From assembly GCA_963719945.1 (NCBI GenBank), contig CAVRDX010000002.1, positions 48,529-112,528 on the forward strand: 64,000 nt of DNA, in the 5' to 3' direction. This DNA is from an uncultured Thermoplasmata archaeon (GTDB lineage: Archaea; Thermoplasmatota; Thermoplasmata; UBA10834). The notes beneath the pieces were generated by a model. That model worked only from the letters and a program-made list of their open reading frames with translations. It made no database searches and was not told where the DNA came from. The position numbers and the translations under genes were made by a program. Of the stretch, positions 1 through 7,544 are shown in pieces (the first letter of the stretch is position 1; every line of letters begins with the position of its first letter).

Positions 1-1307
1 CGAACCATCCCACGAGGAAAGGAGTCATCACATTCCCGAGATCCATGGTCGAGGACGCCATTAGCAAGGTCACTCATCGCAACATGTATCCTGCTCGAGA
101 CAAGAGATGGGACATCGAGTTCGATGGCGAGCACATGTTCCCGTACGCAGGCGGAGGAGACCCGAAGATAATAGATCTGGGGACAGGCCAAGTGAGACAC
201 TCGACCTATAACGATATCGAGATGGCAGCCAAACTCGGCGACTCACTCGAGAACAACAACTTCGCATCCAGCCTGGTGATGGCGAATGATGTCCCGCCTG
301 AGCTGCTGGTCCTGAAGACCGTCGAGGCAGCTATGAAGAACACGGGAAAGGCGGTCACTGCATATGCCCCCGACAAGGAAACGGTCGATTACCTTGTGAA
401 GATGTGGGCATGCGTATCTGGAGGAACCGAGGAGCTCCGGAAGAGACCTCTGTTCAGCCTCGGCGGGTCCCCGAGCAGCCCGCTCACATACTCGGAGCAC
501 ACCTGCGATGTGTTGCTTCGAAGCGTCGAGCACGGTATCCCGTTCTCCGCCCTTCCCTGCCCTATCTGCGGGGAGACGGGACCTATGACTCTGGGCGGCG
601 CATTGGCGCAGCAGAATGCTGAACAACTAGGTGGCATCATGCTCATGCAGACGGTGACCACGAGCCTGCCCACATACTACTCCGGAAGGGTATGCGTCAT
701 GGATCCTCGTTCAGGAAGGGACCTTTGGGGGGTCCCTGAAGAAGCACTCTTGTCTGCGGCCATAGTACAAATCGCTCGCAGGTACGGGATGGTGGCAGAC
801 ACCAACGGTATGTCATCCGACATCACCAGATGGGACATGCAGATGGGGTTCGAACAGATGATGACCGGTCTGATACCGGCCCTGGCAGGTGCGGACAGCA
901 TATCCGGCCTCGGCAGCGGGTGGGCGAGTGCCAGCAGTCTCGAGATGATGGTCATAAACAACGAGGTCTTCAACGATATCGCGAGGATACTCAACGGCAT
1001 CCGTATCGACGAAGGGAGCCTTGCGATAGACCTGATAGATAAGGTTGGAACCATGGGCAGCTTCCTGGCAGAACCTCACACCATGGAGAGCATCCGCGAT
1101 GGAGAAGTACGCATCTCGTCGCTCTGGGACAAACGGAGTTCAGATAAAGTCACCAAGGAAGGCTTCAAGCCGATCCAGGAAACTGCAAGAGACGTTGTGC
1201 GGAGACGACTCGAGGACCACGAACCGGAGCCATTGGATAGGGATGTGGTGAACGGGATAGATCAAGTCATCAAAGAAGCTGCCAGAACATTTCTAGGGAG
1301 ATCGTAG
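1..1307 (+). CDS. Trimethylamine methyltransferase (MttB/PF06253) family protein, non-pyrrolysine, 5'-truncated by window edge
   Basis: Frame open from window start. Motifs SPSSPL, GETGPMTLGGALAQQNAEQL and SSDITRWDMQMGFEQ..LIPALAGAD; no in-frame TAG. Confidence 0.88.
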   Translation, partial: NHPTRKGVITFPRSMVEDAISKVTHRNMYPARDKRWDIEFDGEHMFPYAGGGDPKIIDLGTGQVRHSTYNDIEMAAKLGDSLENNNFASSLVMANDVPPELLVLKTVEAAMKNTGKAVTAYAPDKETVDYLVKMWACVSGGTEELRKRPLFSLGGSPSSPLTYSEHTCDVLLRSVEHGIPFSALPCPICGETGPMTLGGALAQQNAEQLGGIMLMQTVTTSLPTYYSGRVCVMDPRSGRDLWGVPEEALLSAAIVQIARRYGMVADTNGMSSDITRWDMQMGFEQMMTGLIPALAGADSISGLGSGWASASSLEMMVINNEVFNDIARILNGIRIDEGSLAIDLIDKVGTMGSFLAEPHTMESIRDGEVRISSLWDKRSSDKVTKEGFKPIQETARDVVRRRLEDHEPEPLDRDVVNGIDQVIKEAARTFLGRS

Positions 1308-1407
1308 ACCGTCCATTCGATTGCATTAACGAACGCCTTCCCAATCCATGAAGGATGGGCAAACCAGTATGATATTGCTCATCGTGATGCACTGGGCTTC
1401 CCTCGGC

Positions 1408-1417
1408 AAGGTTATAA
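1408..1417 (+). promoter_or_regulatory. Probable TATA box of the Zn-ribbon/DUF2207/rSAM operon
   Basis: AAGGTTATAA about 40 nt upstream of ATG 1454. Confidence 0.45.
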
Positions 1418-1453
1418 GTGGCCAAAGTGAAATCATCCTCGTCAGGGTCTGGA

Positions 1454-1822
1454 ATGAACAAGCTAGTGGGGGCTTTGGTGACATTCGCCGGGATATGCCT
1501 GGTGATCCTCGGCGCTATTTTCATCATAGCGTGGAGCGTCGAGAATGCGATCGCTGGAGGCATGATGGTACTGATAGGCGTGGGCCTCATGTACTACATG
1601 TACAGGGTCGAGAAGATCGAGGCCGCAAAACCTCAACTCGTGTCTCAGACATTCAATGTCAAGATGTCTGGTTCAGGCGAGATGGCCCCGAAGGACATGA
1701 TATGCAAATCATGTGGCGCGCCGATCACCGAGAAGAACTTGAAGGTCATCCAGGGCGGACTCATGGCCACATGCCCGTACTGTGGCGCCGTGTTCGCGCT
1801 GCAGGAAGCTCCGAAGTGGTGA
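1454..1822 (+). CDS. Two-TM membrane protein with C-terminal zinc ribbon
   Basis: Two hydrophobic helices, then CKSCG...CPYCG. ATG 1454 preferred over GTG 1418 from TATA position. Confidence 0.8.
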   Translation: MNKLVGALVTFAGICLVILGAIFIIAWSVENAIAGGMMVLIGVGLMYYMYRVEKIEAAKPQLVSQTFNVKMSGSGEMAPKDMICKSCGAPITEKNLKVIQGGLMATCPYCGAVFALQEAPKW

Positions 1823-1838
1823 TATCATCATATCTACC

Positions 1839-3506
1839 ATGATCCGTCCCGCACTGATGTCATGTTCCATCGTCATGATACTCGTCCTTGCCATAGGCAT
1901 AAGCGCTTGTCCGTTCTCCAATTCGGCCGATGCAGCGGCGACATACAGCTTCAGTGTCGAGTATGAGCGCTTGGATGTCTTCGTGCTCAAGGACGGGAGT
2001 ATCGACATAGACTACTCATTCGGAATGACGAACTTCGGATATCTTGATGGAGTCGACATAGGCCTGCCCAACAAGTACTATGACCTAGACTCGGCCGAAG
2101 CCACGATCATTGTGAACGATCAGGAGTACGCTCCCGCTCTGATACACAAATCACCTTACGTGGAAATCGGAGTGGCCGTCGAGTTCACGAGCACAGTGAT
2201 GGCGTTGATCGACACATATGGCACATCATTCCAGCTGGATTTCCATATCAACAACCCGCATATGGTGTACGAGAACGAGCTCGTGGAAGGCACTGTCGGC
2301 ATAGCAATGAGACCGACCTGGTTCGGCGACGCGTATCAGGTGGGTCCGACCGAGGAGCTCACTGCGAGGGTGTTCTTCCCCGATGGATTCGTGAACGTCA
2401 CCGATGCCGTCTACCTCGAAGGGCAACCATGGAACGAGATAGGGATCGACCCCGGGACAGGGCTATTGGTCGCCACATGGACCGCGTCGAATGCCTATCC
2501 CGCGGGCATCGCGTCTGGCGAATTCGATTTCGGCGCGGGGTTCCCTGCAGAGTTCGTGGACAGTTATGTGCGCCATACGGTCTGGAACTCGATCGCGGAC
2601 TTCTTCGCCTCACTCTTGGAACTGGTCTGCCTCTGCATACCCATCATAGCCCTTGGGGGATTCATATTCCTCATATACATGATTGACAGGGCCAGCAAGG
2701 CCGCGAAGAGGAAGGATTACTTCAATCCGGCCATGGGAGTCGTCGGCTCGGGCCCACGGAGGGACCTCACCGCAGTAGAAGCTGCAATCGTACTCGAGAG
2801 ACCTCTCGAGATGGTGGCGACCATGATACTCTTCGGATTGGTGAAGAAGGGTATGGTGAGGATAGACTCGGATCAGAGACCGATGAAGCTGACGAAACTA
2901 GGAGCCGAGGGGGAACACACCTACGAGACCGACTACCTCAGGGGGATCGGTCCCGATGGTCAGCTGGATCGCACACAGCTGGAGGTGACCCTTGTCGACC
3001 TGATAAAGAGGACCGAGACGAAGCTCGATGGCTTCAACTATAGACACACCAAGAATTACTATCAGGAGATATGCTCCGCCGCGTGGAAACAGGTCAAGGA
3101 TGCTGGAACCCCCGAGGAGTTCGCATCGGTCCTTTCCGACAAGCACGAGTGGATGATGCTCGACAATCACTACGAGACGCAGATGCGACACTATTTCTTC
3201 GCCATGCCATACGTCTACGTGCCCATGACGCACTCCGTTTACGAACACACTATGCCGACAGCACAAGTGTCTCCCCAGCAGCTTGCATCCAACTACGCTA
3301 CGAGCGTCAAGAACGCGAGCAACAACGTTGTCTCGAATTTCAAGTCTCTGGCATATGATATAGCTGGAAAGACGAACCCCGTGACGACGTCCACGGGTTC
3401 GGGTTCTGGTTCGTACCTCAAAGGTGGCGGCGGATTCGGTGGATTCGGAGGAGGATGCGCGTGTGCATGTGCATGCGCATGTGCCTGCGCTGGGGGTGGA
3501 AGATGA
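1839..3506 (+). CDS. DUF2207-like membrane protein with Gly-rich linker and C-terminal (Cys-Ala)6-GGGR tail
   Basis: Signal peptide, DUF2207-like N-terminus (ERLDVFVLKDGSIDIDYSF), one TM helix, cytoplasmic domain (LTAVEAAIVL..LVKKG), tail GGGGFGGFGGGCACACACACACAGGGR. Confidence 0.8.
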   Translation: MIRPALMSCSIVMILVLAIGISACPFSNSADAAATYSFSVEYERLDVFVLKDGSIDIDYSFGMTNFGYLDGVDIGLPNKYYDLDSAEATIIVNDQEYAPALIHKSPYVEIGVAVEFTSTVMALIDTYGTSFQLDFHINNPHMVYENELVEGTVGIAMRPTWFGDAYQVGPTEELTARVFFPDGFVNVTDAVYLEGQPWNEIGIDPGTGLLVATWTASNAYPAGIASGEFDFGAGFPAEFVDSYVRHTVWNSIADFFASLLELVCLCIPIIALGGFIFLIYMIDRASKAAKRKDYFNPAMGVVGSGPRRDLTAVEAAIVLERPLEMVATMILFGLVKKGMVRIDSDQRPMKLTKLGAEGEHTYETDYLRGIGPDGQLDRTQLEVTLVDLIKRTETKLDGFNYRHTKNYYQEICSAAWKQVKDAGTPEEFASVLSDKHEWMMLDNHYETQMRHYFFAMPYVYVPMTHSVYEHTMPTAQVSPQQLASNYATSVKNASNNVVSNFKSLAYDIAGKTNPVTTSTGSGSGSYLKGGGGFGGFGGGCACACACACACAGGGR

Positions 3507-4855
3507 TGCCATTCAGACTCCTTGCCTATTCACCTGAAGAACTAGGCCTCAAGCCCGGCACGTACAAGTACGACGGACCTGGCGACCTCGCTCGTCACCG
3601 ATTCCATATCAGGGTGGACAGTCAGACGAAGGGCGTGCTGATGGTGGACGCGTCGAAGCTGATCTTCCTGAACGGTACTGCTCTCGACTACGTGAGATGC
3701 ATACTCGAGGGGAAGGACGCGGACCGAACATATGCCTACATGAAACGTAGATACAAGGGTCTCAAGAAGGCCGCCGCCAGGGAAGACTATAGGTCCACCA
3801 GGGAGAGGCTTACTCGATTCGTCAAGGGCGAAGAGTCAGTCATGGACGTCATGGGACCCAACGCACCCGCAATCGGTGCGGATGAGATGCCATCGCCATA
3901 CAGGATGGACCTTGCGCTCACATACCGATGCCAGAACGACTGCGGACACTGCTACAACGCAACCAAGGAGAAGAAGGAGCTTTCGGTGAAGGAGTGGATC
4001 ACCATCATAGACAAGCTCTGGGACGCAGGCATACCGCACATAGTATTCACCGGGGGAGAGCCGACCCTGTACGACGGCCTAGATGAGCTGATAGCTCATT
4101 CTGAACTCCACGGACAGATCACAGGACTCATCTCGAACGGCCGGAGCCTCGGAAAGCCGGGCTACCTGAGTTCTCTCGTGTCCAAGGGGTTGGACCATGT
4201 CCAGATCACGGTGCTCTCGCACGAGCGAGAGACACACGATCGATTGGCAGGTGCCAAGGGCGCGTGGCAGGAGACGATCGCGGGATTGAAGGCTGCGATC
4301 GCCGAGGACATGTATGTCAGCACCAACACGACAATCATGAGATCCAATTACGCGCACGTCAAGGAGACCATGAGGTTCCTCGTCGGCCTCGGTGTGAAGA
4401 ATATCGCGTTCAACAGCATCATACGGTCCGGAAAGGGCGTGCAGGCAGAAGGCGTGACATATCAAGAATTATCATCGCTTCTGGAGGAACTCAGAGGTAT
4501 AGCCTCTGAGACGGGGACGAAACTGATATGGTATTCTCCCACACCGTACTGCGAACTCAATCCGGTGAACATGGGCCTGGGCATCAAGCAATGCACCGCC
4601 TGTTCACTGAACATGGCGGTCGAGCCCGACGGGACTGTGCTACCATGCCAGAGCTATTACGAACCTCTCGGGGACATGCTCAAGGATGATTGGTCCACCA
4701 TATGGGGACATCCGCAATGCGAGCGCATCAGGAAGAGGGAGTATGTCGACGAGAAGTGCGGGAAGTGCGAGATGCTTCAGCTGTGCGGAGGCGGATGCCC
4801 GCTTTCTGCGGCTCACGGAGACTATGTGTGCCAGGACAGATACTCATCTATGTGA
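3503..4855 (+). CDS. Radical SAM/SPASM-domain protein with PqqD/RRE-like N-terminal domain
   Basis: CQNDCGHC (CxxxCxxC, 3929-3952), FTGGEP, SPASM motifs CTAC..DGTVLPC and CGKCEMLQLCGGGCP..YVC. ATGA overlap with upstream stop. Confidence 0.93.
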   Translation: MMPFRLLAYSPEELGLKPGTYKYDGPGDLARHRFHIRVDSQTKGVLMVDASKLIFLNGTALDYVRCILEGKDADRTYAYMKRRYKGLKKAAAREDYRSTRERLTRFVKGEESVMDVMGPNAPAIGADEMPSPYRMDLALTYRCQNDCGHCYNATKEKKELSVKEWITIIDKLWDAGIPHIVFTGGEPTLYDGLDELIAHSELHGQITGLISNGRSLGKPGYLSSLVSKGLDHVQITVLSHERETHDRLAGAKGAWQETIAGLKAAIAEDMYVSTNTTIMRSNYAHVKETMRFLVGLGVKNIAFNSIIRSGKGVQAEGVTYQELSSLLEELRGIASETGTKLIWYSPTPYCELNPVNMGLGIKQCTACSLNMAVEPDGTVLPCQSYYEPLGDMLKDDWSTIWGHPQCERIRKREYVDEKCGKCEMLQLCGGGCPLSAAHGDYVCQDRYSSM

Positions 4856-5605
4856 GTCGGGTTTCTTGGCGAACGCATGGAACACGGGGTTGAACTGGAA
4901 CAAAGAGCCATCTTTTAGCGCGCGTTCCCAGATGGGCCGCAGCTCTGCAAGCCGTTCCTTGCCCTCAACGTTCTGAGCAGTCAGTTCCAGGTACCTCCAT
5001 TCGGCCTCTGACTCTGCCCTCAGCTTGTCGATCCCCCATACACCTGGATGTACTCCGACCTCTGCTTCGAGGTGGCACGCTTCGAAGATGGCCCTCAACT
5101 TCCGACCGATCAGAGGATCGCCTCCTTCGGCCCTTATGCCGTCTTCAGCTATCCTGCCAAGTGGGGAGAGCTCCTGAGGGAAGTCGATCCGAGCGCCAAG
5201 GTCCGGCTCCGCAAGACACACGACCCAATGCCTGGAAATGCGAACCATCTCCGACAGAACCCTCACGGGATCGTCGACCCACAGCATAACGAAAGAGCAA
5301 TAGGCCATATCGAAGGAGTCATCCTTGAAAGGCAGCGAGTGCGCATCCCCTTCTCTCACCTCTAGACCCCTGCGTCTGCCCTCGGCAACGGCTGCTGGGT
5401 CGATGTCTATTCCCTGCACATCGAACATCGGAGCTAGCAATTCCATTACGAATCCTGGCCCGCATCCGACATCCAGAGCGGTCGGTCGCCTTTGCCCATT
5501 CCAATTGCTCAGCACCCGCTGCTCAAGTAGCCAGGTCCATGAATCCCTGAGCCAGAGTGATTGCCTCGAGAGCTGTCTATCCATATCCTTCGCAGACCAG
5601 GGCAT
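4844..5605 (-). CDS. Class I SAM-dependent methyltransferase
   Basis: ALDVGCGPG, GIDID, GDAHSLPFKDDSFD motifs. Start approximate. Confidence 0.88.
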   Translation of the reverse strand: MPWSAKDMDRQLSRQSLWLRDSWTWLLEQRVLSNWNGQRRPTALDVGCGPGFVMELLAPMFDVQGIDIDPAAVAEGRRRGLEVREGDAHSLPFKDDSFDMAYCSFVMLWVDDPVRVLSEMVRISRHWVVCLAEPDLGARIDFPQELSPLGRIAEDGIRAEGGDPLIGRKLRAIFEACHLEAEVGVHPGVWGIDKLRAESEAEWRYLELTAQNVEGKERLAELRPIWERALKDGSLFQFNPVFHAFAKKPDSHR

Positions 5606-5763
5606 CGAACATGAAGAGGCGTCCATGAGAGAAATCCTTTGTGGCAATCCTGGCCTATCGAACCGGTCCATCTTATGATGGGAGACATCCATCTTGGTAG
5701 ATGCAGAAGACCTGTCCGTGACAAAATCCATAACGATGGATAGGCATGCGAAAGCTGAGAGGA

Positions 5764-5967
5764 ATGACGATGAAGTGCAATAACTGCGGCTCAGAGAACC
5801 CTGAGGACCATAAATTCTGCGGCGACTGCGGCAAAGAACTGCCGGTAGCCTCTGTGGCCGATGATGATAATTCTATGAGAAAATGTAGTTCTTGTGGCCG
5901 CACTCTGACCGAGGAGACCAATGTCTGCCCATACTGCGGACGATGGGTGAAACGGTCCATGTTCTAG
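5764..5967 (+). CDS. Small double zinc-ribbon protein
   Basis: CNNCG..FCGDCG and CSSCG..CPYCG. Confidence 0.8.
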   Translation: MTMKCNNCGSENPEDHKFCGDCGKELPVASVADDDNSMRKCSSCGRTLTEETNVCPYCGRWVKRSMF

Positions 5968-6178
5968 ATGTCACCCTGGATGAAGGTGTGGGATAGAGCC
6001 GCGTAGGGAAAATATCCTCTTTTGGACGATATCGTGAACTGTATGATCGATTCCGGCATGCAGTTAGGACAACCGGACTCGATGTCGGAATGCTTCACGA
6101 ATAACATCTATGCTTGAACTTGGACTTACGTGGTCACTTAGCCGATCAATGGCGAGGATGAGCTAGATCGACTCTTCC

Positions 6179-7300
6179 TCAGGCTGCGACCTCGATCGTG
6201 CACGATGATATCCCACCGATCAGATCCTCGTAGTCGTAGGCGGGATAGTCCTTCCAGACATCCAATGATCCCGAGACCAGGCCACTTGCAGTAATATCTA
6301 AACTGTAAGTCCCTTCATTCTTGCAGGCGCAGACTTCCCAAGTGAGCAGGACGGTATCGCCTGCGCTGAATGTCTCGAGGTCTGTCAGGTCAGGTGCCTT
6401 GCACACCTTGAGTCCGGATGATGCCTCCATGACCGCGCTGAAGCTCTCGGCAGGGAATGTCGGGAACTTATCCGATCCGAATGGTGCGAGGCACGGGTAT
6501 GTAATCTCCGCCGTCACCTTGAACTTCTCACCTGGCAGGACGATCGATGGAGCTGTGATGTCTATCTCCCATGGCGTGACGAACACTCCGCCGTACATCA
6601 TGCCCGGAACGTTCCATCTCGTCGTATCGCAAGTCCAAGTATCCAAGAAGTCCGCATATTTCCACTTGATCGGCTCGAACTCAGAGTCCCATGCATTCGG
6701 GTTCGCGCTCTGCGAGGTCGAGCCCTGATAATCGTGGTCGTTCTTGAACTCCCTCGACCAGCCGTCATTGATCAGCAGGACCCCTTCGGAGTCATCGTAG
6801 CCCACGACGACACGGTAGTGGTCCCCTGAGTACCATTCTGGAAGCCAATATACGAGCACGATCACGGGATACCCTTGGTCGAGTATCTCCTTCATCTCAT
6901 TCAGCCAGGGCTCATCGGATGCATAGTAGAATCCCGCGTATCCCATGTCCCTGGCGGTATAGCCAGTTACGACAGAGTTCGGCCATCTCGCGCCCATGGT
7001 CGGGCTCATCGAGCTGAACTGAGCCGCTCGTGCCATATCCGGAAGTGCAGTACCTCCGCTCCTAGCCGCATTGTATATCTCTCTCTGATCCACGAACTCG
7101 CCGTAGTAGTCAAACACCATCTGCAACGATACTGCGCCGCAGCCCTTCGCGTCTATCTGTTGATAGAGCGGGACACCGTCGATGAATGCGCTCCCAGACA
7201 GGGCTTGAGTTCCTGAGACGGGAAGCACCATCATAGCCACGATGCAGACACACACGCTCGAGATAAGAAATCGTATACGCCCAACCAGACTCGTCCTCAT
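6179..7300 (-). CDS. Secreted C39-like (papain-fold) cysteine peptidase with C-terminal beta-rich domain
   Basis: Signal peptide, VPLYQQ..GCGAVSLQMV..YYG (Cys), GDHYRVVVGYD (His), IND. Confidence 0.82.
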   Translation of the reverse strand: MRTSLVGRIRFLISSVCVCIVAMMVLPVSGTQALSGSAFIDGVPLYQQIDAKGCGAVSLQMVFDYYGEFVDQREIYNAARSGGTALPDMARAAQFSSMSPTMGARWPNSVVTGYTARDMGYAGFYYASDEPWLNEMKEILDQGYPVIVLVYWLPEWYSGDHYRVVVGYDDSEGVLLINDGWSREFKNDHDYQGSTSQSANPNAWDSEFEPIKWKYADFLDTWTCDTTRWNVPGMMYGGVFVTPWEIDITAPSIVLPGEKFKVTAEITYPCLAPFGSDKFPTFPAESFSAVMEASSGLKVCKAPDLTDLETFSAGDTVLLTWEVCACKNEGTYSLDITASGLVSGSLDVWKDYPAYDYEDLIGGISSCTIEVAA

Positions 7301-7544
7301 GCCTTCTCTCCCCCACTGAGCCGGACCCAAGGAATGCCGCTCAGCTTGGGGAGAATCAGACTATCGATTAATAACAGATTTGATACAGCGATAGAAATGT
7401 CGGCTTGAACGAACTGGAGACTTTTCCAGGGCCATGATTATTCGATTGATACGAACATCGAGAGAAGGCATTAAACCCTTCAAAACGATTCGTACCCAGC
7501 GGCCCTGATTCCAATCAGGGCCGATCGAGAGGAAGTGGGTCAAC

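Follow-up and report, generated by a model that had tools for sequence, protein, structure and literature searches.

A candidate radical SAM/SPASM system for modification of a (Cys-Ala)6-GGGR tail on a membrane protein of archaea and bacteria

The locus described here raises the question of what a radical SAM/SPASM enzyme acts on when the gene directly upstream encodes a full-size membrane protein. To our knowledge, radical SAM/SPASM maturases have almost only small natural-product peptides as known substrates, and we know of very few examples of enzymatic thioethers on real proteins (QhpC and, in 2026, CrpA). The genes were found in a window of 64,000 nucleotides, which is the whole stretch of archaeal DNA that was analyzed. 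The original prediction had named the Cys-Ala tail of the membrane protein as the substrate, and this is supported by adjacency, phyletic pattern, fold, and co-variation in comparative analyses. Judged from the sequence, the probability that the enzyme modifies the cysteines of this cytoplasmic tail, most likely as thioether crosslinks, is put at about 0.6.

Gene order and protein architecture

Three tightly packed genes on the forward strand, 16 nt apart or overlapping, make up the core of the cassette. They encode a Zn-ribbon membrane protein (P0001, 1454-1822; 122 aa from the ATG at 1454, or 134 aa from an alternative GTG at 1418), the tail protein (1839-3506; 555 aa from the ATG, with an alternative GTG at 1782), and the radical SAM/SPASM enzyme (P0003, 3503-4855; 450 aa). 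The ATG of the enzyme gene (3503-3505) overlaps the TGA of the tail gene (3504-3506) as ATGA. The sequence TTATAA at 1412-1417 of the same strand, 37 nt upstream of the ATG at 1454, reads as a plausible archaeal TATA box. A class I SAM methyltransferase gene on the reverse strand (4844-5731; Pfam Methyltransf_11, 71 bits) is convergent with the enzyme gene and overlaps its 3' end by 12 nt. Because all of these genes overlap or lie 16 nt apart, there is no space for a small precursor gene, and a hidden precursor ORF within the cassette was ruled out. The co-orientation of the three genes, the TATA-like box, the ATGA overlap, and the absence of a nearby precursor ORF were all found where the original prediction had placed them.

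The layout of the tail protein (all features on the forward strand) was derived from the sequence and an AF2 model (m067fa0a71fec, pLDDT 78) and comprises a signal or transmembrane segment (1845-1907), a beta-sandwich ectodomain (1950-2546), and a transmembrane region (2580-2711). The model and the alignment of orthologues then place a cytoplasmic winged-helix plus helical domain at 2772-3194 and two conserved helices at 3273-3374, followed by a disordered C-terminus. The protein ends GGGGFGGFGGG-CACACACACACA-GGGR, directly before the stop codon. The Gly-rich linker GGGGFGGFGGG (3423-3455), delimited in the alignment of orthologues, differs among them in composition and length. The last 16 residues, (Cys-Ala)6-GGGR (3456-3503), are the proposed substrate core on the basis of conservation: they are invariant in 31 of 31 archaeal orthologues, and the 94 residues before them share one invariant Pro. 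In the bacterial form, the motif is followed by 20-40 further conserved residues. Among 131 tails from other genomes, 128 nucleotide versions of the 36-nt (CA)6 coding stretch were counted, so that the peptide stays constant over freely varying synonymous sites, and a microsatellite or assembly artefact was thereby ruled out as the origin of the repeat. Placement of the disordered tail in the cytoplasm, as the topology had been read earlier, is supported by the positive-inside rule and the AF2 model, and a tail so predicted would be within reach of an Fe-S enzyme.

The family assignment of the tail protein proved less certain than the label 'DUF2207-like' had implied. No Pfam family, DUF2207 (PF09972) included, matched at E<=0.01, and the label is left with a sub-threshold match to TIGR04222 (17.9 bits, cutoff 43) and weak Atlas shape matches to DUF2207 clusters (TM only 0.37-0.40). 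Fold searches gave weak or partial matches, with the beta-sandwich domains of ribophorin-I and M1-aminopeptidase at TMq 0.22-0.28 and Atlas TM values of at most 0.46. The DUF2207/TIGR04222 proteins do share the layout, consisting of a signal or transmembrane segment, a beta-rich ectodomain, a transmembrane segment, a cytoplasmic winged-helix-like segment, and a low-complexity Gly-rich end, but the family descriptions contain neither the invariant Cys-Ala core nor the dedicated enzyme of the present system. The system also falls outside the definition of a RiPP by a small leader-core precursor and a released product, since what is proposed as the substrate forms the C-terminus of a conserved membrane protein of 555 aa.

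The enzyme was assigned to Radical_SAM PF04055 at 78.2 bits (cutoff 29.5) and to the SPASM subfamily (PF13186/TIGR04085) at 35.1 bits in Pfam (cutoff 21.5). Its CX3CX2C cluster motif (C143, C147, C150; 3929-3952, forward strand) is invariant in an alignment of 32 orthologues, and the SPASM domain (C350...C443; 4550-4831, forward strand), identified by Pfam and the Cys motif, has a complete Cys set (C367-x9-G377-x4-C382, C419-x2-C422-x5-C428-x3-C432, and C443). In the AF2 model (me9a8ad0c78ac, pLDDT 83.6), residues 19-107 (3557-3823, forward strand) form an N-terminal RRE-like domain of four strands followed by three helices, with pLDDT 73-94 in the blocks across it. Comparison with solved radical SAM enzymes using VIA gave Z scores of 24-28, and the matches to SuiB (Z 28.1) and SkfB (Z 27.5), both of which bear an RRE, covered nearly the full length, beginning at model residues 21 and 32, respectively. 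The fold class is that of the RRE-radical SAM-SPASM enzymes SuiB, SkfB, and CteB. The earlier designation as an RRE-radical SAM/SPASM enzyme stands for the radical SAM and SPASM parts by Pfam and for an RRE-like domain by fold, and not for an RRE by any HMM, as no PqqD or RRE model in Pfam matched at E<=0.01. An RRE in the strict sense is a PqqD-like winged helix of three strands and three helices that binds the leader of the substrate.

The best PDB profile match was the sactisynthase SkfB (E 2.6e-30). No curated maturase family reached its NCBIfam cutoff with the window enzyme (scores/cutoffs: SkfB TIGR04403, 87.9/300; StsB NF045574, 74.3/625; PqqE TIGR02109, 118.2/381), and the best scores were to PqqE and NirJ2, neither a thioether synthase, with AhbD also among the best ones. 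PapB (NF047865) and AlbA (NF012164) were not among the best 25 of 62 families; a Heimdall orthologue scored 72.4/340 and 80.6/850 against them. The CrpC family TIGR04463 likewise lay outside the best 25 of 62 matching families and so scored below 55.9 bits, which does not place the enzyme in that family. When the enzyme was co-folded with a 110-residue C-terminal fragment of the tail protein in the presence of SAM and three 4Fe-4S clusters, the median score was 0.02 (mark 0.32), which speaks neither for nor against binding.

Distribution of the cassette and co-variation of enzyme and tail

Of 41 related genomes, the same 12 have the enzyme, tail, and Zn-ribbon genes, in every case next to one another, and none of the three was found in the other 29. 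All 11 enzyme orthologues that were retrieved by enzyme homology alone follow a gene ending in (CA)6GGGR. In the reverse direction, the enzyme gene adjoins (CA)6GGG tails in other species genomes in 46 of 46 archaeal and 64 of 65 judgeable bacterial cases. The total of 110 of 111 refers to judgeable loci only, and relatives among them are not independent samples. Start-stop overlap of the tail and enzyme genes is widespread among the loci. The question posed with the original prediction, whether such tails rarely neighbor the enzyme, is therefore answered in the negative by these 110 loci. No enzyme orthologue was found beside a small precursor, the other outcome that would have told against the prediction; more distant active homologues lie beside other Cys-repeat C-termini, mostly on large membrane proteins. 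Exceptions are three Asgard loci with the enzyme and methyltransferase genes but no tail gene nearby, in whose genomes a search for the tail protein found nothing, and a 35%-identical active homologue that follows only a Zn-ribbon gene on a contig of 4.8 kb. On the sequence comparisons, the link between enzyme and tail is not due to chance.

The type of tail varies with the enzyme subfamily. Tier-1 enzymes of Asgard archaea accompany (CA)6, (CA)5, or CACACA-G-CACACA-GGGR tails in 27 of 30 loci, and a sister Asgard clade of active enzymes accompanies related proteins of 712-755 aa ending (CHSA)n...GG[FG]R in all eight loci examined. Each of three homologues without CX3CX2C follows a Cys-less membrane protein; a dead paralogue used as query retrieved no relatives, and its alignment was too divergent to seed a scan. 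On the enzyme tree, the tail classes cluster with 12 changes over the labelled rows, or 23 when unlabelled rows are treated as one group, compared with a mean of 129 after shuffling. Repeated Cys residues with small spacers are common to the tail classes and are lost with the dead enzyme, which fits Cys as the reactive group.

Proposed modification and alternative readings

The proposed mechanism is as follows. The tail protein would be inserted with its beta-sandwich domain outside and its folded domain and disordered C-terminus in the cytoplasm, and the enzyme would be translated from the overlapping start codon. Its RRE-like domain probably binds the conserved region that directly precedes the tail, and the enzyme, by 5'-deoxyadenosyl radical chemistry with two auxiliary clusters, would act on the (Cys-Ala)6-GGGR core. 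The likeliest product would carry up to six Cys-derived thioethers to carbons of adjacent Ala or Gly, of the sactionine or ranthionine type, and such crosslinks would tie the C-terminus into a rigid knot. The methyltransferase probably adds one more methyl group, and the Zn-ribbon membrane protein probably accompanies the tail protein in the membrane.

Modification of the tail by radical chemistry other than thioether formation, followed by methylation, is unlikely but deserves weighing; candidates are an oxidation that turns Cys into formylglycine or a thioaldehyde (anSME-like), epimerization of Ala or Cys to D-residues (PoyD/YydG/EpeE-like), and C-C or C-methyl chemistry. The fold also matches anSME, PqqE, and ChlB (Z 25 each) and, less well, the epimerase EpeE (Z 18.5), the top NCBIfam scores are those noted above, and the associated methyltransferase suggests a multi-step product. 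However, full-length matches that include the N-terminal domain are to RRE-bearing maturases only, the best sequence match is a sactisynthase, the tail lacks the anSME motif C/S-x-P/A-x-R, and the shared repeated Cys, lost with the dead enzyme, is in keeping with Cys as the group that reacts.

A somewhat less probable reading is that the tail is an unmodified metal or Fe-S site for which the enzyme builds or inserts the held cluster or cofactor, or that it serves the enzyme for docking or regulation. Repeats of Cys-X-Cys commonly bind metals through their thiolates, and their invariance could reflect metal or cluster geometry. Zn-ribbon modules accompany the tail protein or are fused to it, and Cys/Gly-rich tails presumably occur also on related membrane proteins without the enzyme, with which the sub-threshold TIGR04222 match is consistent. 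It would nevertheless be unusual for a simple metal site to keep its spacer Ala, its number of repeats, and its GGGR terminus exactly the same in archaea and in bacteria. The architecture of the enzyme is the one by which peptide maturases recognize their substrates, and loss of the radical SAM motif goes with loss of the Cys tail.

It is very improbable that the tail protein is a giant precursor whose modified 16-residue core is freed as a small RiPP by cleavage after the Gly run. A Gly-Gly run does stand directly before the core, and a C39-like peptidase gene lies 1.3 kb from the cassette in the window. This gene was rejected as a cassette member, as it is kept without the cassette in a same-genus genome (G006) and is absent from all other cassette loci searched. 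The peptidase seems to be exported, either secreted or anchored to the outer face of the membrane, and the tail lies in the cytoplasm. In addition, no conserved protease or transporter was found in the cassette loci, the bacterial motif has conserved residues after it, and the 540-aa part upstream of the core is conserved in the alignment and folded in the AF2 model. Mere co-location in a conserved operon, with the enzyme acting on a small molecule or an unlinked protein, could draw on the three Asgard loci without a tail gene and on the scores to the cofactor enzymes PqqE, NirJ2, and AhbD, but is equally improbable because it gives no reason why tail class should follow enzyme clade, why dead enzymes should pair with Cys-less proteins, or why there should be translational coupling and an RRE-like domain.

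Relation to known systems and accessory genes

A direct precedent for RiPP-like chemistry on a protein, as proposed for the tail, is provided by CrpC and CrpA of Methanococcus voltae. CrpC is an archaeal RRE-radical SAM-SPASM enzyme that targets Cys in the repetitive C-terminal region of the full-size, Cys-rich neighbor protein CrpA and forms ranthionine-type thioethers, as determined by MS (PMC13692751, 2026). CrpA has ten 17-residue repeats with C-x-x-Q/D motifs where the tail protein has (CA)6-GGGR, it is not called a membrane protein (PMC13692751), and the partners found here, the Zn-ribbon protein and the methyltransferase, differ. The text of PMC13692751 makes no mention of the (CA)6-GGGR motif, of membranes, or of Methanomassiliicoccales, and literature searches for the motif with 'radical SAM' found no paper. 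In StsB/StsA and BlaB/BlaA, the donor core is CxCxC, and the radical SAM/SPASM enzyme produces a hairpin in which each Cys is joined to the alpha-carbon of a Gly (PMC10288494). The StsA core is the nearest known core sequence to the Gly-flanked Cys-Ala repeats, but StsA is a small peptide with three Cys (six in the tail) and is served by a separate RRE protein.

SkfB (PDB 6EFN), SuiB (5V1Q), and CteB (5WHY) share a common fold with the enzyme, including the N-terminal RRE-like domain, at 14-22% identity. Both SkfB and CteB catalyze the formation of Cys thioethers, and SCIFF, the substrate of CteB, likewise contains six Cys; the substrates of all three are, however, small leader-core peptides, and in SkfB a twitch domain takes the place of the full SPASM domain. 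In QhpC, Cys thioethers within the protein are formed by QhpD. QhpD and anSME resemble what is proposed for the present enzyme in that these SPASM enzymes have folded or full-length proteins as substrates and not free peptides, but they have no RRE, their substrates are soluble enzymes or subunits, and their motifs and products differ (a cofactor-bearing subunit and formylglycine, respectively).

The protein whose cytoplasmic tail is the likely substrate is a conserved, receptor-like integral membrane protein, and the motif of this tail is an unusually invariant short stretch common to archaea, Asgard lineages included, and gut/rumen Firmicutes. If confirmed, the modification would add a new PTM of proteins and extend the enzyme superfamily to a new class of substrates, and it would give a handle on the function of a large group of uncharacterized DUF2207-like membrane proteins. 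Natural controls for experiments would be available in the (CHSA)n sister system and in the pairs of a dead enzyme and a Cys-less protein. We hold it an even bet that anaerobic archaea (Thermoplasmatota, Asgard) and bacteria (Bacillota, Mycoplasmatota) share a new class of PTM of integral membrane proteins. In this class, a dedicated RRE-radical SAM-SPASM enzyme would install a Cys-derived covalent structure, either a polythioether knot or a new protein-derived cofactor, on the cytoplasmic tail of widespread receptor-like membrane proteins. It would include (CHSA)n...GGFR sister systems, pairs of pseudo-enzymes and Cys-less proteins that keep only the binding relation, and optional methyltransferase and Zn-ribbon partners.

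The Zn-ribbon protein has two hydrophobic helices, read from the sequence as a transmembrane hairpin (about 1460-1603), followed by a CxxC-x19-CxxC ribbon (about 1700-1795), both on the forward strand; its Pfam zinc-ribbon matches were weak and below cutoff. Within Thermoplasmatota, its proposed role as a partner is supported by a phyletic pattern identical to that of the tail gene, its orthologues occurring in the same 12 of 41 relatives, each as the gene immediately before the tail gene. Of 68 bacterial tail proteins, 30 carry an analogous Zn ribbon as a fused domain, and the Heimdall loci with an available upstream flank yielded no homologue of P0001.

The conserved class I methyltransferase had not been mentioned in the original prediction and is a probable accessory of the cassette. 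Its true start is probably M36 or M43, as the conserved part begins near residue 47. In-frame TGA codons in its orthologues were dismissed, as they appeared only in alignments running past the true stop. No methyltransferase homologue is conserved beside the bacterial form of the cassette. A homologue directly follows the enzyme gene in 32 archaeal loci, 25 of them convergent (Thermoplasmatota) and seven co-directional (Heimdall), and one same-genus genome keeps the methyltransferase without the other three genes.

Genes of the locus and predicted structures

The cassette consists of three genes on the forward strand. Gene 1 (1454-1822, +; alternative start GTG 1418) encodes a small Zn-ribbon membrane protein, P0001, with two hydrophobic helices followed by a C-terminal CxxC-x19-CxxC ribbon that matched Pfam zinc-ribbon models weakly and under cutoff. 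Gene 2 (1839-3506, +) encodes the 555-aa tail protein, which ends with a Gly-rich run, CACACACACACA, GGGR, and the stop codon. Gene 3 (3503-4855, +) encodes the 450-aa rSAM/SPASM enzyme, and its ATG overlaps the gene 2 stop (ATGA). A TTATAA element was read in the sequence at 1412-1417, 37 nt upstream of ATG 1454. The original prediction named these three genes, all of which are present, and omitted a convergent class I SAM methyltransferase gene (4844-5731, -) that overlaps the 3' end of the rSAM gene by 12 nt. The methyltransferase scored 71 bits against Pfam Methyltransf_11 and matched no specific NCBIfam family. The genes overlap or sit 16 nt apart, so a small precursor gene has no space, in line with the earlier observation that no such ORF is nearby.

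An MttB-family (trimethylamine methyltransferase superfamily) gene upstream of the cassette (3-1307, +) is truncated by the window start; 434 residues are present, with no in-frame stop. On the other side, divergent from the methyltransferase, lies a gene for a 73-aa double zinc-ribbon protein (5746-5967, +; Pfam DZR, 50 bits), and beyond it a gene (6179-7330, -) whose 383-aa product has a hydrophobic segment at its N-terminus and a domain matching Peptidase_C39_2 at 60 bits. No linkage of this C39-like gene to the cassette was found in other genomes.

The gene 3 enzyme exceeded the Pfam cutoffs for both Radical_SAM and SPASM, its CX3CX2C motif is C143/147/150, and its set of SPASM cysteines is complete; the nearest sequences were from Thermoplasmatota and Methanomassiliicoccaceae archaea. 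These relatives and the upstream MttB-family gene together suggest a Methanomassiliicoccales-type archaeon as the source. In the enzyme model (pLDDT 83.6), residues 19-107 fold into four strands plus three helices at the N-terminus, and the rSAM core and the SPASM domain follow in that order. The top Foldseek matches were the RRE-bearing peptide maturases SuiB, SkfB, and CteB, whose fold the window enzyme shares by this measure. In the VIA comparisons, SuiB covered model residues 21-444 (Z 28.1, rmsd 4.2, 378 aligned) and SkfB residues 32-437 (Z 27.5, rmsd 4.2, 347 aligned); SkfB was also the best solved-structure match to a 32-orthologue enzyme profile (E 2.6e-30). The RRE HMMs did not match the window enzyme, and support for the RRE-like domain assigned to it in the original prediction therefore comes from the fold, as seen in the SuiB and SkfB alignments.

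The tail-protein model (pLDDT 78) begins with an N-terminal helix and an acidic beta-sandwich ectodomain (35 D+E vs 7 K+R) that is predicted with confidence. A single TM region, a Lys/Arg cluster, and a winged-helix plus helical domain placed in the cytoplasm follow, and the C-terminal part comprises two conserved helices and 39 final disordered residues. By the positive-inside rule, the Lys/Arg cluster after the TM would place the tail in the cytoplasm, in agreement with the topology proposed earlier.

Linkage of the enzyme to the Cys-Ala tail

The rSAM enzyme, the tail protein, and the Zn-ribbon protein, each searched separately, were present in an identical 12 of 41 related genomes, and none of them was found in the remaining 29. 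The distribution is patchy even inside the genus, and in all 12 carriers the genes were adjacent and in unchanged order. Eleven orthologous enzymes (55-88% identical) were retrieved without using the tail as a criterion, and the gene preceding the enzyme had the exact (CA)6GGGR end in 11/11. At one locus (L007, G019:C4:16939-18649), the reading frame of the tail-protein orthologue breaks at about residue 220, through either a frameshift or an assembly error, leaving two frames; both the (CA)6GGGR end and the rSAM gene are intact.

A (CA)6GGG pattern scan covering one genome per prokaryotic species and at least 120 stretches separated the matches listed into two architectures. The archaeal form, in Methanomassiliicoccales, other Thermoplasmatota, and Heimdall/Asgard genomes, is a protein of approximately 540-570 aa that terminates at GGGR, and start and stop codons typically overlap by 1 or 4 nt; among the matches listed, the rSAM gene was directly downstream in 44 of 46 cases, the other two being bacterial genes that run off the locus end and have the rSAM gene upstream. 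The bacterial form, in Lachnospiraceae, Oscillospiraceae, other Bacillota, and Acholeplasmatales/Anaeroplasma, has 300-470 aa and the same layout of N-terminal TM, ectodomain, and second TM as the archaeal form. Its tail reads (CA)6GGGR-[AV]GC plus 20-40 further residues, and the rSAM gene is usually directly upstream, adjoining the tail gene in 64 of 65 judgeable loci among the matches listed. One carrier of the system is a cultured Clostridium isolate (L048). For the rSAM gene, the adjacency check proposed with the original prediction held at 46/46 loci counted as archaeal and at all but one of the judgeable bacterial loci.

The 36-nt stretch coding for the tail occurred in 128 distinct nucleotide versions among 131 tails, and when the C-terminal 110 residues of 31 archaeal proteins were aligned, invariance was confined to one Pro and the 16 tail residues, which argues for selection on the peptide.

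Co-variation of tail and enzyme, and candidate chemistry

The strongest new evidence in the analysis, drawn from sequence comparison, is that the tail class appears to co-vary with the enzyme. An exhaustive HMMER search (E<=1e-30) yielded 207 cluster representatives of the enzyme family, and among the best 150 of these the CX3CX2C motif was absent in 23 of 78 full-length representatives. Gene contexts were examined for a sample of homologues. At three loci (L135:1672-4754, L136:86-3108, and L140:2245-4883), homologues without the motif have a start/stop coupled with that of a preceding gene for a 419-572-aa membrane protein, and the C-terminus of this partner is cysteine-free in 3/3. Among homologues retaining the motif, one that is 32% identical (L139) is flanked on one side by a membrane Zn-ribbon protein and on the other by a protein of 924 aa whose C-terminus has CHSA repeats plus GGWG, and another, 27% identical (L137), is preceded by a C-terminus of HSDCVS repeats, the contig ending inside that partner gene.

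An enzyme homologue was present in 88 of 201 Asgard genomes. All enzymes at the best 30 Asgard loci were active by motif, and at 27 of these loci the enzyme was preceded by a tail of the type (CA)6GGGR, (CA)5GGGR, CACACA-G-CACACA-GGGR, or CACACACA-G-CACACA-GGGR. Second-tier Asgard enzymes (E ~1e-70 to the window enzyme), also active and with SPASM present, formed a separate clade and are encoded next to, and divergently from, tail-protein relatives of 712-755 aa. The C-termini of these partners are nearly identical, each with 11 Cys in CHSA and CVSHDA units and with GG[FG]R as the last residues (8/8 ends examined; sister-system loci L191-L198 in genomes G181, G134, G211, G196, G208, G184, G128, and G087). 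When tail classes were used as labels on a FastTree phylogeny of 215 enzymes, 12 changes were counted among labelled classes, or 23 with unlabelled rows as a group, against a shuffled mean of 129. The tree shows clustering of tail classes, which is not independent proof because relatives share labels.

Exceptions were found at three Asgard loci (L168, L169, and L170 in G132, G120, and G052), where an active rSAM gene and a co-directional methyltransferase gene have no tail gene nearby; a search of these genomes with a Heimdall query found no tail-protein homologue. At L138:2106-3982, a 35%-identical active rSAM also has no tail protein on its 4.8-kb contig.

Modification of the tail cysteines by the enzyme is the best-supported reading, and would be preferred over an unmodified, metal-binding tail and over a core released in peptide form, both of which were given lower weight. 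Thioether crosslinks are the favoured product because of the analogy with SkfB, StsB, which joins CxCxC donors to Gly alpha-carbons (PMC10288494), and CrpC, which installs ranthionines in a large protein rich in Cys (PMC13692751). By this analogy the enzyme would link the tail cysteines to Ala or to the invariant Gly residues as acceptors; other cysteine chemistry on the tail was likewise weighted lower than thioether formation.

The tail protein is not named by any NCBIfam or Pfam model. Scores for specific rSAM families stayed below cutoff for the window enzyme, one Heimdall example, and two bacterial examples, and full-text literature searches found the motif in no paper. For rSAM chemistry of the RiPP kind on a protein, QhpD is a precedent. 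CrpC (2026) is another (PMC13692751), and the idea itself is no longer new. The new features are the proposed integral membrane substrate, the new invariant core and its spread over both domains, the new partners, and the sister and pseudo-enzyme systems.

Lineage-specific partner genes

In Thermoplasmatota, the Zn-ribbon gene followed the phyletic pattern of the cassette and was always upstream, in keeping with the Zn-ribbon partner proposed in the original prediction; no P0001 homologue was found in the Heimdall loci that had an upstream flank available. A close gene 1 homologue with the same ...EAPKW end directly precedes the 35%-identical enzyme of L138. In 30 of 68 bacterial tail proteins, a fused CxxC-x10-CxxC ribbon follows the second TM and precedes the repeat; it has no detectable homology to gene 1 and is analogous. 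These fused proteins (L016, L019, L025, L028, and 26 other loci) are of the Lachnospiraceae type, in which SPNTY-V-H-V is a conserved segment and one additional unit, SSCAHSS, stands ahead of (CA)6.

A methyltransferase homologue was located directly 3' of the rSAM gene in 32 archaeal loci (25 convergent, in Thermoplasmatota; 7 co-directional, in Heimdall). No such neighbour was detected for the bacterial form, in which conservation is limited to the enzyme and tail genes. As judged from gene content, the enzyme and its tail protein therefore make up the minimal conserved unit, with the Zn ribbon and the methyltransferase as probable lineage-specific accessories.

Genome G006 (same genus, 94% complete) retains the methyltransferase, double-Zn-ribbon, and C39-like genes in synteny and lacks the three cassette genes. 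Comparison of its locus (L133, G006:C1:44000-56000) with window positions 1-7400 revealed that the MttB gene is also absent from G006, and the difference between the two genomes is an indel polymorphism with its breakpoint at the 3' end of the methyltransferase gene.
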